From Escherichia coli (lineage in GTDB: Bacteria; Pseudomonadota; Gammaproteobacteria; Enterobacterales; Enterobacteriaceae), in assembly GCF_003334305.1 (NCBI RefSeq), contig NZ_QOWS01000004.1: 64,000 bases of DNA. One strand, 5' to 3'. Positions within the stretch are counted from its first letter, which is position 1. Every line of letters starts with the position of its first letter. The position numbers and the translations under genes were made by a program. Shown in pieces: positions 43,952 to 53,115 of the stretch. Under the pieces are notes generated by a model, which worked only from the letters and a program-made list of their open reading frames with translations, was not told the DNA's origin and did no database searches.

Positions 43952-44111
43952 TTACTCCGGAGAAACGTACACGCACATGTATACCTCTCCAGCGTAACTG
44001 AGAATAGTTCCAGTGAACACCTGTTAGCTAAAATAAATTCTGATTTGAGACTAATCTCCTAAAAATCATGAAATTAAATGCGAAATTTCAACTAACAGGC
44101 GTGAGTTCAAT

Positions 44112-44423
44112 TTAAAGACATTTAAATTCAATCACATAAAACTGTGTCTGACCGGGATAGATGTCGGCAATGACCTTTATCAGTTCAGTCAGGGTCATAT
44201 TTTCCTGCTCTGCATGTTTTTCCGTCAGCGTATCCAGCGTTACGGTTGAGGTTGCGGTGACTTCAATCGTGCAAAAATAACCGTCATCTTCAAAACGCCC
44301 GACACGAAGCACATCACCCGTTTTGAAGTGCGATTCAGACTCGTCGCGGATGGTGATGGTTTTACGCCCAGCCAGAATGTCATCCTGGAAACGTTGAAAA
44401 AAAGTGATGTCGTTTGGCTGCAT
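44112..44423 (-). CDS. yqfB: ASCH-domain protein
   Basis: 103 aa. Confidence 0.88.
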
Positions 44424-44440
44424 GGTACTATTTCCTGTAA

Positions 44441-45901
<1,461 letters not shown>

Positions 45902-45957
45902 GTCGATGAAGTACCGGATGCAATACTTGTTGCATCCGGTCAGACAACTTCCCTGTT

Positions 45958-46701
45958 TTATTTCCCGCCCGCCAAATCGATAAAACTTCCCGTGACGTAA
46001 GAGGCTTTATCACTTAGTAGCCAGACAATGGCCCGCGCGACCTCTTCTGCCTGTCCACCACGCTGCATGGGGATGTTCGACTTAACGCGATCGACGCGTC
46101 CAGGCTCGCCGCCGCTGGCGTGCATTTCGGTATAAATAAACCCTGGCCGCACGCAGTTAACGCGGATCCCCTGCGCGGCGACTTCCAGCGATAGTCCGGT
46201 GGTTAACGTATCAATCGCCCCTTTCGATGCCGCGTAATCAACATATTCCCCTGGCGAACCCAACCGTGAGGCCACCGAAGAGACATTGACGATAGCGCCG
46301 CCACTGCCACCATTTTTAAGCGCCATGCGTTTTACCGCCTCGCGGCAGCAGAGAAAATATCCCGTCACGTTGGTGGAAAGTACTCGGTTGATTCGCTCTG
46401 CGGTAAGGTTTTCAACGGTGCACTGGGTAAACAAGATCCCGGCGTTATTGACCAGCGCTGCTAGCGGTTCATCGTGCTGATCGATTGCTGTAAACATCGC
46501 AACGACCTGGTTTTCGTCGCTGATATCCGCCTGGAGCACGAATGCTTTGCCACCGGCTTGCGTTATTAAGTTCATCACTTCCTGCGCCGCGTGGAGGTTT
46601 TGCTGATAATTAACCGCCACCGTATACCCTTCTTGCGCCAACAGTAATGCAGTTGCCCGCCCGATGCCGCGACTGCCACCGGTCACAAGTGCTATAGCCA
46701 T
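45958..46701 (-). CDS. ygfF: Short-chain dehydrogenase/reductase
   Basis: 247 aa; TGGSRGIG cofactor motif. Confidence 0.9.
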   Translation of the reverse strand: MAIALVTGGSRGIGRATALLLAQEGYTVAVNYQQNLHAAQEVMNLITQAGGKAFVLQADISDENQVVAMFTAIDQHDEPLAALVNNAGILFTQCTVENLTAERINRVLSTNVTGYFLCCREAVKRMALKNGGSGGAIVNVSSVASRLGSPGEYVDYAASKGAIDTLTTGLSLEVAAQGIRVNCVRPGFIYTEMHASGGEPGRVDRVKSNIPMQRGGQAEEVARAIVWLLSDKASYVTGSFIDLAGGK

Positions 46702-46786
46702 TTGTTTTTCCGAGAAAAATTAATTCGTTGACGTATCTTTGAGATTGCTAACAAACTGGCTCAATCTTCAATGTTGGCACGCTTTT

Positions 46787-46887
46787 CCCCTCGCCCTTTC
46801 AGGGAGAGGGCCGGGGTGAGGGTAAATATTCGCGCCAGTGCCGGCCTGTTCCCCTCACCCTAACCCTCTCCCCAAAGGGGCGAGGGG
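46787..46887. repeat. GC-rich imperfect extragenic palindrome (REP-like element), about 100 bp
   Basis: Arms CCCCTCGCCCTTTCAGGGAGAGGGCCGGGGTGAGGGT and CCCCTCACCCTAACCCTCTCCCCAAAGGGGCGAGGGG are near reverse complements; shares the GAGGGTGAGG/CCTCACCC motif with the element at 49876-49946. Confidence 0.6.
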
Positions 46888-46921
46888 ACTGTCTGAGCAC
46901 TTTTGTACTTTGTCATCTGAC

Positions 46922-46944
46922 TAAAAAGGCGCCGAAGCGCCTTT
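46922..46944 (-). terminator. Intrinsic terminator of the gcvTHP operon
   Basis: Minus strand: AAAGGCGC-UUCG-GCGCCUUU hairpin with U-run, 23 nt after the gcvP stop. Confidence 0.8.
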
Positions 46945-46966
46945 AGAAAATAGTCGAATCAGTGAA

Positions 46967-49840
46967 TTACTGGTATTCGCTAATCGGTACGCAGGAGCAG
47001 AACAGGTTACGGTCGCCGTAAACATCATCCAGACGTTTCACTGTCGGCCAGTATTTGTCTGCCACACCTGCCGGGAATACCGCAACTTCACGGCTGTACG
47101 GATGCGCCCACTCGGCGACCAGTTCGCTCTGAATGTGCGGCGCGTTCACCAGCGGGTTATCTTCCAGCGGCCAGACACCGGCTTTCACCTGGTCAATTTC
47201 TGCGCGGATAGCCAGCATCGCGTCGATAAAGCGATCCAGTTCCACTTTGCTTTCAGATTCAGTCGGTTCAACCATCAGCGTACCTGCCACCGGGAACGAC
47301 ATCGTCGGCGCGTGGAAACCGTAGTCGATCAGGCGCTTGGCAATATCCAGCTCGCTGATGCCGGTTTCTTCTTTCAACGGACGAATATCGAGAATACATT
47401 CGTGCGCCACGCGACCGTCACGACCGGTATACAGCACCGGGAAGGCATCCTGCAGGCGGCTGGCAATATAGTTGGCGTTGAGGATTGCCACCTGGCTTGC
47501 TTTTTTCAGCCCTTCTGCGCCCATCATGCGGATGTACATCCAGCTGATTGGCAGGATAGAGGCGCTACCGAACGGTGCCGCAGAAACCGCGCCCTGACGG
47601 GTTAACATGCCTTCGATTTGCACCACGCTATGACCCGGTACAAACGGTGCCAAATGCGCTTTCACACCGATCGGTCCCATACCCGGACCACCACCGCCGT
47701 GCGGAATGCAGAAAGTTTTATGCAGGTTAAGGTGCGAAACGTCCGCACCAATAAAGCCCGGTGAGGTGATGCCAACCTGGGCGTTCATGTTCGCGCCATC
47801 AAGGTAAACCTGACCGCCGAACTGATGCACGACTTCACACACTTCACGGATCGTTTCTTCATACACGCCGTGGGTGGAAGGATAGGTCACCATGATACAG
47901 GAGAGGTTATCGCCCGCCTGTTCCGCTTTCTCGCGCAGATCAGCCAGATCGATGTTGCCGTTTTTATCACACGCCACAACCACCACCTGCATTCCTGCCA
48001 TATGTGCAGAAGCGGGGTTAGTGCCGTGCGCAGAAGCCGGGATCAGGCAGATATCGCGATGCCCTTCGTTGCGGCTTTCATGATAATGACGAATCGCCAG
48101 CAGGCCCGCGTATTCGCCCTGTGCGCCAGAGTTCGGCTGCATACAAACGGCATCGTAACCGGTCAGTTTCACCAGCCAGTCAGCCAGCTGCGCGATCATC
48201 TGCTGATAACCTTCGGCCTGTTCCGGCGGGCAGAACGGGTGCAGTTCGGCAAATTCAGGCCAGGTGATTGGGATCATCTCGGCGGCGGCGTTCAGTTTCA
48301 TGGTGCAGGAACCCAGCGGGATCATCGCCTGATTCAGCGCCAGATCTTTACGCTCCAGCGAGTGCATATAGCGCATCATTTCGGTTTCGCTGTGGTAGCG
48401 ATTAAACACCGGATGGGTGAGGATTTCATCGTCGCGCAGCATCGCAGGCTGGATAGAGCGGCTGTCGTGAGCCACGTCTTTGTCCAGCGTGTCGATGTCC
48501 AGCCCGTGGTTATCCCCCAGTAGTACGCTGAAAAGCTGCATTACGTTTTCATGCGTGGTGGTTTCATCAAGGGTGATCCCCACCGCGTTCAGGATATCGC
48601 TACGCAGGTTGATTTCAGCCGCTTCGGCACGCGCCAGTACGCCCGCCTTGTCGGCCACTTCCACACACAGAGTGTCGAAATAGTGCGCATGGCGCAGCTT
48701 CAGACCTTTTTGTTGCAGGCCTGCCGCCAGGATATCGGTCAAACGGTGAATGCGGTTAGCGATACGTTTCAGGCCAACCGGGCCGTGATAAACGGCATAC
48801 AGGCTGGCGATGTTTGCCAGCAGTACCTGGGAAGTACAAATGTTGGAGTTCGCTTTCTCACGGCGGATATGTTGCTCGCGAGTCTGCATCGCCATGCGCA
48901 GCGCGGTATTGCCAGCTGCATCTTTCGATACACCGATAATACGGCCCGGCATTGAGCGTTTGTATTCATCTTTCGCCGCAAAGAATGCCGCGTGTGGGCC
49001 ACCGTAGCCCATCGGCACGCCGAAGCGTTGCGCCGAACCAAAAACAATATCCGCGCCCTGTTTACCCGGCGCAGTTAACAGCACCAGCGCCATAATATCG
49101 GCGGCAACGCTGACCACAATTTTGCGTGATTTCAGTTCGCTAATAAGCGCAGTGTAGTCGTGAATTTCACCGGTAGTGCCTACCTGCTGTAACAGCACGC
49201 CGAAGACGTCCTGATGGTCGAGCACTTTTTGCGCGTCATCGACAATCACTTCAAAACCAAAGGTTTCGGCACGAGTACGGACCACATCCAGCGTTTGCGG
49301 ATGCACATCGGAAGCCACGAAGAAGCGGTTGGCATTTTTCAGTTTGCTGACGCGTTTCGCCATCGCCATTGCTTCGGCGGCAGCGGTGGCCTCGTCCAGA
49401 AGAGAAGCAGAGGCCATATCCAGTCCAGTCAAATCCAGCGTTACCTGCTGGAAGTTGAGCAGTGCTTCAAGGCGGCCCTGGGAGACTTCAGGTTGATACG
49501 GAGTGTACGCGGTATACCAGCCCGGATTTTCCAGCATGTTACGCAGGATAACCGGCGGTAGCTGCACGGCGGTGTAACCCATGCCGATGTAAGACGTGAA
49601 GCGTTTATTGCGACTGGCAATAGCCTTGAGTTCTGCCAGTGCGGCGTATTCGGTCGCCGGTGCGCCAACCTGCGGCGGGGTCGCAAGCTGAATATCTTTC
49701 GGCACAATCTGGCCGGTCAGCGCGTTTAACGATTGTGCACCAACGGCATTCAGCATTTCTTGCTGTTGCGCGGCGTCCGGTCCGATATGGCGTTCAATAA
49801 AAGCGCCGCTGTTTTCAAGCTGGCTTAACGTCTGTGTCAT
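46967..49840 (-). CDS. gcvP: Glycine dehydrogenase (decarboxylating), glycine cleavage P protein
   Basis: 957 aa. Confidence 0.95.
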
Positions 49841-49875
49841 GAGCGATGGTTCCTGAAACGTGCAGTGAATTGTGA

Positions 49876-49946
49876 ACCTCTCTCCTTACGAAGAGAGTGA
49901 GGGTGAGGCATAAATTTTCCTCACCCTGATCCTCTCCCGCAGAAGA
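49876..49946. repeat. GC-rich extragenic palindromic element between gcvP and gcvH
   Basis: CCTCTCTCCTTACGAAGAGAGTGAGGGTGAGGCATAAATTTTCCTCACCCTGATCCTCTCCC; nested inverted repeats. Confidence 0.55.
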
Positions 49947-49958
49947 GGAATAAAGCCG

Positions 49959-50348
49959 TTACTCGTCTTCTAACAATGCTTCGTATGCGGTCGCATCCAG
50001 CAGTGATTCCAGTTCGCTTTCATCGCTGGCTTTGATTTTAAAGATCCAGCCACCTGCATACGGTTCGCTGTTCACCAGTTCCGGGGAATCGCTCAGTGCG
50101 TCGTTTACCGCCACGATTTCACCGCTTACTGGCGCATAAATGTCTGACGCCGCTTTTACTGATTCGGCAACCGCGCAGTCATCGCCCGCGCTAACCGTTG
50201 CGCCCACTTCCGGCAGGTCAACAAACACCATATCGCCTAACAGCTCCTGAGCATGTTCGGTAATACCAACGGTGTAAGTGCCGTCGGCTTCTTTACGCAG
50301 CCATTCGTGTTCTTTGCTGTATTTCAGTTCTGCTGGTACGTTGCTCAT
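49959..50348 (-). CDS. gcvH: Glycine cleavage system H protein
   Basis: 129 aa from the second Met ([10 protein letters not shown]). Confidence 0.95.
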
Positions 50349-50371
50349 CAATCAATCTCCAAAAAAGTAAA

Positions 50372-51466
50372 TCACGCGACGGCTTTGCCGTTACGCACAA
50401 AAACAGGTTTTGTCACTTTAACCGGCATTTCACGGTTGCGAATTTGCACAATCGCCGTTTCGCCAATACCTTCCGGCACGCGCGCCAGCGCAATGCTGTA
50501 ACCCAGCGTCGGGGAGAAAGTACCGCTGGTGATAATGCCTTCATGCTGGTTGCCCTGCGCATCGGTAAAGCGTACCGGCAGTTCATTACGCAGCACGCCT
50601 TTTTCGGTCATCACCAGACCAACCAGTTTTTCTGTACCATGCTCACGCTGCACTTCCAGGGCTTCACGACCGATAAAGTCACGATCTGCCGGTTCCCAGG
50701 CGATAGTCCAGCCCATGTTGGCGGCTAAAGGAGAAATAGTTTCGTCCATCTCCTGACCATAAAGATTCATGCCCGCTTCCAGACGCAGCGTGTCACGCGC
50801 GCCCAAGCCACATGGCTTAACACCCGCTTCCACCAGCGCACGCCAGAAATCGGCCGCTTTTTCATTGGGCAGCGCAATTTCATAGCCCGCTTCACCGGTA
50901 TAACCAGTGGTGGCAATAAACAGATCGCCCGCCTGCACGCCAAAGAACGGTTTCATCCCTTCCACCGCCTGACGCTGGGCGTCATTAAACAGTGTGGCAG
51001 CTTTTGCCTGCGCATTCGGCCCTTGCACGGCAATCATGGAAAGGTCATCACGAACGGTAATTTCGATGCCGAAAGGTTCAGCGTGTTGGGTAATCCAGGA
51101 GAGGTCTTTTTCGCGGGTGGCGGAGTTAACAACGAGGCGGAAGAAATCTTCAGTAAAGTAGTAGACGATGAGGTCATCTATCACACCGCCAGAGGCATTC
51201 AACATCCCCGAGTAAAGGGCTTTGCCGCTTTTGGTGAGCTTCGCCACATCGTTCGCCAGCAGATAACGCAGAAACTCCCGGGTGCGGCTGCCGCGGAGAT
51301 CGACGATGGTCATATGTGACACATCAAACATTCCGGCATCGGTACGTACCGCATGATGTTCGTCGATTTGCGAACCGTAATGCAGCGGCATCATCCAGCC
51401 GTGGAAATCCACCATGCGAGCGCCGCAAAGCGTGTGTTGTTCGTACAAAGGAGTCTGTTGTGCCAT
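50372..51466 (-). CDS. gcvT: Aminomethyltransferase, glycine cleavage T protein
   Basis: 364 aa from ATG 51466 ([10 protein letters not shown]); track ORF extends upstream from a GTG. Confidence 0.95.
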
Positions 51467-51840
51467 CTTGTCCTCATTGAATAAGCGGGGCTGACAACTT
51501 TTCATGGTGAAATTATCACCACGAAACCCAGCATCGGAGCCACTCCCGGTCCCCAACGCAATCGTTCTCTTTTGCCTGAACTTACCACCGAAACAGACTG
51601 TTAACCATAAGGTAAAATTGATCATCACATTAGCTTATGGTTAAAAAACGCCAAAATCGCGACAGAATAAAAAACCAAAAAACACACCAGTTTCTATATA
51701 AAGATGATACCATTAGAAAGCTAATTTGAATAAGGCAATATTAAGAGCTAAAAAAATGTCAAAAAACACTAAATCAAAAAATAATGACATTAGAAAATAT
51801 AATGCGAAAACGGAGGTGAAATTAGTTTATTTCAAATGAG
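51467..51840 (-). promoter_or_regulatory. AT-rich gcvTHP upstream control region
   Basis: About 370 bp of AT-rich, non-coding DNA upstream of gcvT; individual sites not resolved. Confidence 0.45.
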
Positions 51841-51912
51841 GAAAATCTCCCGGCGAAAAAAACGGGAGATGAAAGTGTGATGGGTATCAAATAAACAGCA
51901 GAAGAGAAATTT

Positions 51913-53115
51913 TTAACGCAGCCATTCAGGCAAATCGTTTAATCCCATTGCCTGGCGGATAAGTTGTGGTTTAACGCCAGGAAGCGTGTCGGCCAGTTTC
52001 AAACCAATATCACGCAGCAGTTTTTTCGCCGGATTGGTACCGGAAAACAGATCGCGGAATCCCTGCATACCAGCCAGCATCAGCGCCGCACTGTGCTTGC
52101 GGCTACGCTCATACCGGCGCAGGTAAATGTACTGCCCGATGTCTTTCCCCTGACGATGCAACCGTTTCAGTTCAGCAATCAGCTCTGCAGCATCCATAAA
52201 GCCGAGATTTACTCCCTGCCCCGCCAGCGGGTGAATGGTATGCGCGGCGTCGCCCACCAGCACCAGACGGTGCGCGGCAAACTGGCGCGCATAACGCCCC
52301 GTCAGTGGGAACACCTGACGCGCGCTCTCAACCTTGCATAAGCCCAGGCGATTATCAAAAGCGATATTTAACGCGCGATTAAATTCATCTTCACTTGCCT
52401 GCTGCATCCGCTGCGCTTCCTCTGGCGACAGTGACCAGACAATTGAGCAAAGATGCGGATCGCTAAGCGGTAAAAAGGCCAGAATGCCTTCGCCATGGAA
52501 AACCTGCCGCGCCACCGCATCATGCGGTTCTTCCGTGCGAATGGTCGCTACCAGCGCGTGATGCTGATAATCCCAGAAAGTCAGCGGAATATCTGCTTTG
52601 TTGCGCAACCAGGAATTAGCACCGTCCGCGCCAATCACCAGACGCGCCGTTAACATGCTGCCATCTTTCAGCGTCAGGAAAGTTTCATTTTCTCCCCAGG
52701 CGACCTGCTGTAATTCTGCGGGGGCCAACAGAGTGATATCTGACGACTGCTGCGCTTTGTTCCACAGCGCGTAGTGAATCACTGAGTTTTCAACGATATG
52801 CCCAAGATGGCTATAGCCCATGCTTTGATCGTCAAACGAAATGTGACCAAAACTGTCTTTGTCCCACACTTCCATACCGTGATAACAACTGGCCCTACGA
52901 GAGAGAATGTCCTGCCAGACGCCAAGACGGGTGAGTAATTTTTCGCTGGCGGCATTGATAGCCGAAACGCGCAGTTGTGGTGGTGCATCCGCCGCCAGAG
53001 GTTCCGGTACGCGCTGCTCCAGTACGGCAACGCGTAAGCCGCTCCCCTGTAAGCCGCAGGCAACCGCCAGCCCCACCATGCCGCCACCAACAATGGCTAC
53101 ATCAACACTTTGCAT
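51913..53115 (-). CDS. ubiI: FAD-dependent monooxygenase (ubiquinone biosynthesis hydroxylase)
   Basis: 400 aa; VAIVGGGMVG dinucleotide motif; also called visC. Confidence 0.93.
   Translation of the reverse strand: MQSVDVAIVGGGMVGLAVACGLQGSGLRVAVLEQRVPEPLAADAPPQLRVSAINAASEKLLTRLGVWQDILSRRASCYHGMEVWDKDSFGHISFDDQSMGYSHLGHIVENSVIHYALWNKAQQSSDITLLAPAELQQVAWGENETFLTLKDGSMLTARLVIGADGANSWLRNKADIPLTFWDYQHHALVATIRTEEPHDAVARQVFHGEGILAFLPLSDPHLCSIVWSLSPEEAQRMQQASEDEFNRALNIAFDNRLGLCKVESARQVFPLTGRYARQFAAHRLVLVGDAAHTIHPLAGQGVNLGFMDAAELIAELKRLHRQGKDIGQYIYLRRYERSRKHSAALMLAGMQGFRDLFSGTNPAKKLLRDIGLKLADTLPGVKPQLIRQAMGLNDLPEWLR

Follow-up and report, generated by a model that had tools for sequence, protein, structure and literature searches.

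Two palindromes around gcvP in the gcvTHP operon

We analyzed a stretch of 64,000 nucleotides from the Escherichia coli chromosome (contig NZ_QOWS01000004.1, assembly GCF_003334305.1; hereafter the window), with emphasis on the gcvTHP operon and on two GC-rich palindromes that flank gcvP—element 1, downstream of the gene, and element 2, in the spacer between gcvH and gcvP. The window is close to identical with the K-12 MG1655 chromosome, and from position 46788 onward a K-12 coordinate equals window position x + 2,999,201. RNA 3' ends were taken from the Term-seq tables of Adams et al. 2021 (supplementary file 1, PMC7815308), whose coordinate convention was verified against the gcvP terminator. 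The genes and features of the locus, in window positions, are as follows.

45958-46701, minus strand: ygfF
46922 (K-12 3,046,123), minus strand: RNA 3' end at the gcvP terminator (Term-seq, 36,065 reads, class 'primary gcvP')
46923-46947, minus strand: hairpin of the gcvP intrinsic terminator, as read from the sequence (GGCGC-TTCG-GCGCC, then TTTTT)
46967-49840, minus strand: gcvP
49841-49958: gcvH-gcvP spacer, 118 nucleotides
49877-49948: element 2, which takes up most of this spacer
49959-50348, minus strand: gcvH (gcvT is also on the minus strand)

An earlier, sequence-only reading of this region had reported related palindromes on both sides of gcvP, one past the terminator of that gene and the other within the transcribed gcvH-gcvP spacer, and we found both in these places. 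The arms of element 1 (46786-46825 and 46849-46888) are 40 nucleotides long and 83% complementary, with 23 nucleotides between them; those of element 2 (49880-49908 and 49919-49947) are 29 nucleotides long and 72% complementary, with 10 nucleotides between them. A GGGTGAGG/CCTCACCC core is common to the two elements; the exact 10-mer GAGGGTGAGG, which that reading had listed as shared, is present in element 2 only and reduces to GGGTGAGG as the common core. The window contains GGGTGAGG six times, against 1.2 expected, and four of these six occurrences lie inside the two elements. Moreover, a 20-nucleotide block is identical at 18 of 20 positions between them (46853-46872, CCTCACCCTAACCCTCTCCC; 49919-49938, CCTCACCCTGATCCTCTCCC). 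Judged by sequence, this likeness exceeds chance, and both elements are inverted pairs of units from one dispersed extragenic repeat family, BoxC (also named PIT or TMECO), which has 22-23 catalogued copies in K-12; the repeat family that had been proposed is thus a real one. The NC_000913.3 annotation carries no repeat feature at the site of either element.

BoxC, a GC-rich repeat found between genes in E. coli and its relatives, has to our knowledge had no function assigned to it for 30 years, published tests having found none; only triplex formation in vitro and a link to variable loci are on record. Its study as potential intrastrand triplex (PIT) elements is reportedly due to Hoyne and Maher, 2000-2002. 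The repeat was described as an E. coli palindrome in the 1990s, refound in 2000 under the PIT name and renamed TMECO by Holder et al. 2015, with the consensus CCCTCNCCC-N3-6-GGGNGAGGG-N3-GGGNGAGGG (PMC4666352). All five TMECO pairs of K-12 join a type B unit (CCG loop) to an inverted type A unit (TTA loop), with the GGGTGAGGG arms pointing inward (PMC4666352). For comparison we used two K-12 lists, the 22-member family of Petrillo et al. 2008 (PMC2267715) and a 23-copy list, together with two sequence profiles: an independent one based on 20 BoxC copies from other K-12 loci, and a second built from the 23 TMECO copies.

Element 1 is a canonical BoxC pair in a strain-variable segment

Element 1 resolves into two complete units around an inner spacer.

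46788-46823, plus strand: BoxC/TMECO unit, type B, one mismatch, CCCTCGCCC-TTTCA-GGGAGAGGG-CCG-GGGTGAGGG-T
46824-46850: inner spacer of the inverted pair, 27 nucleotides
46851-46886, minus strand: BoxC/TMECO unit, type A, one mismatch, TTA loop, inverted relative to the first unit

The plus-strand unit is identical to TMECO no. 10 (K-12 3,045,989-3,046,024; Table 1, PMC4666352) and to eco:10_BoxC (list of PMC2267715), and the minus-strand unit to TMECO no. 11 (K-12 3,046,087-3,046,052; same table) and eco:11_BoxC (same list). Both units agree with the strict BoxC/PIT/TMECO consensus, with 0 substitutions each; the 20-copy profile gives E=1.5e-11 for the first and E=2.7e-17 for the second, and across the 23- and 20-copy profiles the values run from 1e-11 to 1e-17. 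Element 1 shares with the known family the three-block motif, the inverted combination of type B and type A (loops CCG and TTA), the intergenic position and the location in a strain-variable region. Its spacer and about 10-30 nucleotides of its outer flanks are 85-86% identical to the K-12 BoxC pairs at alx-sstT and fepB-entC; the pair as a whole is thus one repeat unit, and what was moved or duplicated measures about 140 nucleotides. A 151-nucleotide query over element 1 (46760-46910) matched a median of 7 and a maximum of 14 places per genome among 5,426 complete E. coli genomes, so the element is part of a dispersed repeat—the recurrence that the sequence-only reading had asked for.

At the gcvP locus itself, element 1 with its flanks was present in 3,029 of the 5,426 genomes and missing from 2,397 (44%). 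The underlying presence/absence polymorphism is a segment of about 1 kb (45902-46921) that holds ygfF and, 35 nucleotides inside it, the BoxC pair; the two are jointly absent in, e.g., EC12 and O157:H7 F3113. In genomes without ygfF, the bglA-gcvP spacer measures about 163 bp and contains a REP-like palindrome, and homology returns exactly at the gcvP terminator. Such variability fits the published observation that TMECO loci are more variable among strains and tied to strain-variable regions (PMC4666352). The Term-seq tables list no curated RNA end within the pair (PMC7815308). Given its position past the terminator, the lack of a mapped RNA end and its absence from 44% of the genomes, element 1 is unlikely to have a role in gcvP expression; we regard it as untranscribed and dispensable, with no evident gcv function.

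Two smaller variants were seen in the element 1 region: the run of C residues that borders the first unit on its outer side (46783-46791) has one C less than in K-12 (TTTTCCCCTCG vs TTTTCCCCCTCG), and strain 55989 is among those with an allele shorter by 5 nucleotides (96.8% identity class). Additionally, the bglA terminator hairpin (ACCGGATGCAATACTTGTTGCATCCGGT, 45905-45943) has a Term-seq 3' end at K-12 3,045,144 on the plus strand, which falls within the 3' end of the convergent ygfF.

Element 2 derives from a BoxC pair and is fixed in E. coli

The two halves of element 2 retain the BoxC layout in altered form.

49877-49908, plus strand: decayed BoxC unit, promoter-distal half, CCTCTCTCC-TTACG-AAGAGAG-TGA-GGGTGAGG
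49919-49948, minus strand: decayed BoxC unit, promoter-proximal half, in mRNA sense CCTCTTCT-GCG-GGAGAGGA-TCA-GGGTGAGG

Neither the 22-copy nor the 23-copy list includes element 2. Against the strict consensus, the half at 49876-49909 has 6 substitutions, a level at which 0.1 sites are expected by chance per window, and the other half has more than 6 substitutions, or indels. The profile values are modest: E=0.0056 (49919-49938) and E=0.24 (49877-49908) with the 20-copy profile, and E=0.012 and 6.9, respectively, with the 23-copy profile, so that the promoter-proximal half scores as significant and the promoter-distal half as marginal. Among all matches of the 20-copy profile in the 64-kb window, the two halves rank 4th and 7th. 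In both halves, the modules stand in order—outer C-arm, loop, G-arm 1, 3-nucleotide loop, G-arm 2—and the halves lie on opposite strands with their GGGTGAGG arms inward, in the orientation and spacing of genuine pairs. Module order and pair geometry are thus those of BoxC, with mutated loops (TCA and TGA); in the same slot, a related Escherichia allele (L005) has TTA in both loops, and Enterobacter has CAG and TAA. Furthermore, the E. coli spacer aligns colinearly, with matching boundaries, with canonical BoxC pairs that occupy the same slot in Enterobacter, Pseudocitrobacter and Buttiauxella. The profile matches, the ordered modules and these canonical pairs identify element 2 as a BoxC derivative; as it departs from the strict consensus, we file it as a decayed derivative and not as a canonical member. 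It differs from a typical BoxC pair in having at least 6 departures per unit, an inner spacer of 10 nucleotides and no catalogue entry, in being invariant across the species and in lying inside an operon transcript.

Element 2 was found in all 5,426 complete E. coli genomes at an identity of at least 95%, in single copy at megablast sensitivity, and is among the most stable intergenic features of the species.

Elsewhere in the window, a BoxC-like hairpin without a third arm (CCCTCTTCCC-GCA-GGGAAGAGGG-TTA, 21420-21445) lies between two same-strand open reading frames of 464 and 259 amino acids, probably ssnA and ygfM. Its BoxC profile value (E=0.005) equals that of the best half of element 2, and it may be another decayed BoxC within an operon.

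Element 2 folds into three hairpins with invariant stems

On the gcv mRNA strand, the 118-nucleotide spacer folds into three hairpins, with a minimum-energy fold of -44.3 kcal/mol (z=-4.35). They are listed here together with the major RNA 3' end of the spacer.

49930-49949, minus strand: hairpin H1, UCCUCUUC-UGCG-GGAGAGGA, in the minimum-energy fold and in RNAalifold
49900-49927, minus strand: central hairpin H2, AGGGUGAGG, 10-nucleotide loop, CCUCACCCU, formed by the two inverted GGGTGAGG arms
49896 (K-12 3,049,097), minus strand: major RNA 3' end (Term-seq), 4 nucleotides past the last H2 pair, ...CCUCACCCUCACU-3'
49878-49897, minus strand: hairpin H3, CUCUCUUC-GUAA-GGAGAGAG, in the minimum-energy fold and in RNAalifold

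The RNAalifold consensus of nine species contains the same three hairpins, with two-sided changes at 7 of 23 pairs, a conservation that is weak evidence for RNA-level selection because the repeat is intrinsically palindromic. In E. coli, decay of the repeat has kept pairing, with C:G changed to U:A or U:G on the mRNA strand. The G-U pairs that remain on the mRNA strand give the sense RNA an advantage in stability of about 10 kcal/mol over the antisense (-40.5 vs -30.3), a bias that is not consistent in other species. Among eight E. coli alleles, taken non-randomly across the identity range of ranked BLAST matches, all five variable sites and one 6-nucleotide duplication fall in loops, and all stems are invariant: every substitution in H2 lies within its loop, and the sole polymorphism of H3 is a loop GUAA/GCAA. 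The duplication (CCTCAC, in E. coli O157:H7 LSU61) adjoins the 3' arm of the central hairpin and looks like replication slippage in the repeat.

An Rfam scan of 44000-53000 at a relaxed threshold returned matches over element 1 (microRNA-precursor and similar families) of at most 33 bits, against gathering values of 71-105, and one weak match over element 2; we rejected those over both elements because they reflect hairpin shape. A consensus scan of 46600-50100 for promoters and terminators, which also failed to call the true gcvP terminator, called neither promoter-like sites nor a terminator in either element.

The main internal RNA 3' end of the operon lies at the base of the central hairpin

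The end at 49896 averages 412,219 reads in LB at an optical density of 0.4 and 171,112 on a second sheet; its coordinate prefix, 3,049,097, occurs three times in the file, which we took as one entry per condition sheet. The former count is about 11 times that of the gcvP terminator (36,065), in a dataset whose read counts are not strictly quantitative. The end is labelled 'orphan' there and tied to no repeat (PMC7815308), and the accompanying table of Rho regions lists nothing near 49896. The sequence after H2 is CACUCUCUUCGU, without a U-tract, so that the gcvH-gcvP spacer does not have the makings of an intrinsic terminator at this point; what element 2 does present—a stable hairpin with a 3' end at its base in a transcribed spacer—is what would be expected of a REP/BIME-like hairpin that protects 3' ends. 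The same geometry, with the end 4 nucleotides past the stem, was observed at three other BoxC-type hairpins: the primary lldD end at 3,781,065 and the ends at 3,959,467 and 847,200. At six other TMECO loci examined, a curated Term-seq 3' end is absent; BoxC copies are therefore no general marker of RNA ends.

An internal termination site after gcvH, with 71-76% termination, has been reported in Dickeya dadantii (PMC9239193), and is described there as agreeing with E. coli studies. The literature that we searched describes no E. coli gcvH-gcvP stem-loop and no binding of ProQ or Hfq to the gcvH 3' region, and the main texts of the SMRT-Cappable-seq paper and of Conway et al. 2014 do not mention gcv. 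The suggestion that the repeats might affect gcvP and gcvTH differently stands in part: the element 2 copy fits both the Term-seq counts (412,219 vs 36,065 reads) and the reported internal termination, whereas a contribution of element 1 is unlikely for the reasons given above.

Two other strong Term-seq ends were noted on the minus strand at the start of the operon, one at 51401 (K-12 3,050,602; 105,625 reads), 65 nucleotides into the gcvT open reading frame, and another, also labelled 'orphan', at 51522 in the gcvT leader (K-12 3,050,723; 80,101 reads); these ends in the gcvT 5' region suggest premature termination or processing. A further end lies within gcvP, at 49557 (K-12 3,048,758).

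Different repeats and terminators occupy the same slot in other Enterobacterales

To place element 2 in a broader context, we surveyed gcvH-gcvP junctions from 80 species, a set without Salmonella, Klebsiella, E. albertii and E. fergusonii. Canonical inverted BoxC pairs with the same boundaries fill the slot in Enterobacter cloacae, E. asburiae, a Pseudocitrobacter and Buttiauxella (profile E down to 3e-10); partly decayed pairs are found in a metagenome-assembled genome, Enterobacteriaceae bacterium RIT691 and Siccibacter colletis, and a single BoxC unit in Pluralibacter gergoviae. REP-type palindromes take this place in Citrobacter, Lelliottia and some Enterobacter, and an ERIC-like element, recognized by eye against an ERIC copy, in C. 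youngae, C. koseri and Kluyvera. In Cedecea and Phytobacter, the slot holds a plain CCCTCTCCC/GGGAGAGGG hairpin without the third arm. In Dickeya, Providencia and Photorhabdus, a terminator-like GC hairpin with a T-run follows right after gcvH, and similar hairpins with T-runs were seen by eye in Serratia, Pectobacterium and Yersinia spacers. The spacers of Erwinia (23 nucleotides) and Rosenbergiella (8 nucleotides) are too short for any element; across the surveyed species, the slot is seldom empty. Whatever repeat fills the remainder, the only part of the spacer conserved across Enterobacteriaceae is the stretch of about 30 nucleotides before the gcvP start, which in the window lies outside the repeat.

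49841-49870, minus strand: conserved stretch before the gcvP start codon, with the ribosome-binding site, ATTCACTGCACGTTTCAGGAACCATCGCTC

Occupancy also varies within genera—BoxC or REP in Enterobacter, a single BoxC unit or REP in Pluralibacter, a plain hairpin or a REP-like element in Cedecea—and repeat turnover at the slot therefore appears rapid. In a Providencia sp., the spacer extends to 445 nucleotides and holds three tandem ERIC-like copies.

Interpretation of the two elements and alternative explanations

Taken as a whole, we consider it probable that both elements are BoxC pairs, that element 1 has no evident gcv function and that a hairpin of element 2 sets the 3' end of the gcvTH message. 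Under this reading, element 2 would be an old, decayed BoxC pair, fixed in the species, that folds into three mRNA hairpins when gcvTHP is transcribed; the central 9-bp GC-rich hairpin H2 would set the dominant 3' end of gcvT-gcvH transcripts by blocking 3'-to-5' exonucleases, as REP hairpins do, possibly together with partial termination, so that gcvT and gcvH message would outlast or outnumber gcvP message. An exonuclease barrier is favoured because H2 is not followed by a U-tract, because the distance from its stem to the 3' end is only 4 nucleotides and because PIT elements were without terminator activity when tested earlier. A more specific proposal—that the pair has been co-opted as an internal RNA-end determinant of gcvTHP, securing a high ratio of GcvT and GcvH to GcvP, in a slot repeatedly refilled by terminators, REP, ERIC or BoxC—is nearly evenly balanced, and we advance it tentatively.

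Several points weigh against this interpretation. Element 2 departs from the strict consensus in both halves and its profile values are modest; the palindromic nature of the repeat could by itself account for the cross-species pairing; the eight alleles were not a random sample; the Term-seq counts behind the 11-fold ratio are loosely quantitative; and six TMECO loci have no curated end. Earlier PIT work, as relayed in PMC4666352, detected neither promoter nor terminator activity, nor any effect on RNA polymerase. In addition, we infer, and do not observe, that H2 causes the 49896 end, that an exonuclease barrier is the mechanism and that protein ratios are affected.

REP/BIME elements are intercistronic mRNA stabilisers, e.g., in malE-malF, and offer the closest functional parallel: like them, element 2 is a stable GC-rich intercistronic hairpin with a 3' end at its base, and the upstream genes would be expected to be more highly represented; REP copies even fill the same slot in the genera named above. 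However, the two belong to unrelated sequence families, BoxC has no known transposase partner, and the stabilising effect of element 2 is only proposed. The ERIC/IRU family resembles BoxC as a dispersed, imperfect enterobacterial palindrome that is transcribed within operons, and ERIC-like copies fill the same slot in the species named above, but it differs in sequence and has a longer unit (about 127 nucleotides).

The contents of the slot in other species make a leaky transcription terminator or attenuator a serious alternative, albeit an unlikely one. Under this explanation, polymerase would stop just past H2 and the end would not arise from degradation. The hairpins with T-runs in Dickeya, Providencia and Photorhabdus occupy the same slot, and the Dickeya site shares both the operon position and the expected outcome, i.e., less gcvP than gcvTH; the large excess of reads over the operon-end terminator and the empty Rho table around the site would also suit such a terminator. 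The E. coli element, unlike its Dickeya counterpart, lacks a U-tract, and in one and the same dataset its end lies 4 nucleotides past the stem, while that of the gcvP terminator lies 6 nucleotides into the U-run. The consensus terminator scan called nothing in the spacer, and the earlier reporter tests of PIT/BoxC, as cited in PMC4666352, likewise speak against termination.

A role at the level of DNA, in which single-strand triplexes or cruciforms stall replication and promote rearrangement—the repeats then being selfish or instability DNA with no gcv role—seems to us rather unlikely for the locus as a whole. TMECO oligonucleotides with canonical sequences do form stable purine-motif triplexes in vitro (PMC4666352), and the strain variability of TMECO loci is matched by element 1, with its position 35 nucleotides inside a segment absent from 2,397 of 5,426 genomes and its 5-nucleotide-shorter allele. 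Dimethyl sulfate footprinting in vivo, however, gave no evidence of triplex formation (PMC4666352). Element 2, moreover, is present in every genome, in single copy and with invariant stems; its duplex part contains T-G or C-A mismatches, which would be expected to weaken a triplex, yet these departures from the consensus keep the RNA hairpins, and the strong RNA 3' end would be left unexplained. Triplex formation or instability may thus describe element 1 but does not fit element 2.

That element 2 is not derived from BoxC at all, but consists of hairpins that evolved locally and resemble the family by convergence or chance, is improbable. Such a view could draw on the failed strict consensus, on the value of only E=0.24 for one half, on the simple-sequence character of CT/GA-rich hairpins and on the plain hairpins without a third arm in Cedecea and Phytobacter. 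It is countered by the complete, ordered set of modules on both halves, inverted and with the two G-arm 2 copies inward, by the colinear alignment and matching boundaries with canonical pairs in the slot, by the 18 of 20 nucleotides in common with element 1 and by the presence of both halves, correctly oriented, among the top 7 profile matches of 64 kb. Lastly, binding of DNA gyrase, IHF or DNA polymerase I, a property of REP/BIME and not of BoxC in the case of gyrase and IHF (the two factors that the sequence-only reading had proposed), has only the analogy of GC-rich extragenic palindromes in its favour and is very improbable here, as neither element contains a REP sequence (GCCGGATG..., which occurs instead in spacers of Citrobacter and in the E. 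coli allele without ygfF) or a match to the IHF consensus, and the BoxC literature that we consulted describes no such binding (PMC4666352).

Implications for the operon and the BoxC family

Earlier publications already contain the BoxC family, its downstream copy (element 1) and the internal RNA end. The present analysis connects them: element 2, a decayed BoxC pair missing from the catalogues but fixed in E. coli, is located where the operon has its main internal RNA end, in a slot that terminators, REP or ERIC fill in other Enterobacterales. The practical value is modest, in that an 'orphan' Term-seq end and a repeat without annotation can be better annotated. The locus also offers a natural contrast between a canonical pair that is untranscribed and dispensable (element 1) and a decayed pair that is transcribed and fixed and has kept only its RNA hairpins (element 2). 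If H2 causes the 49896 end, it would explain how one promoter yields less message for P-protein than for T- and H-protein. If the proposed co-option is true, different repeat families would have been recruited to one regulatory slot, and BoxC would have a concrete RNA-level role, at least at gcvTHP.

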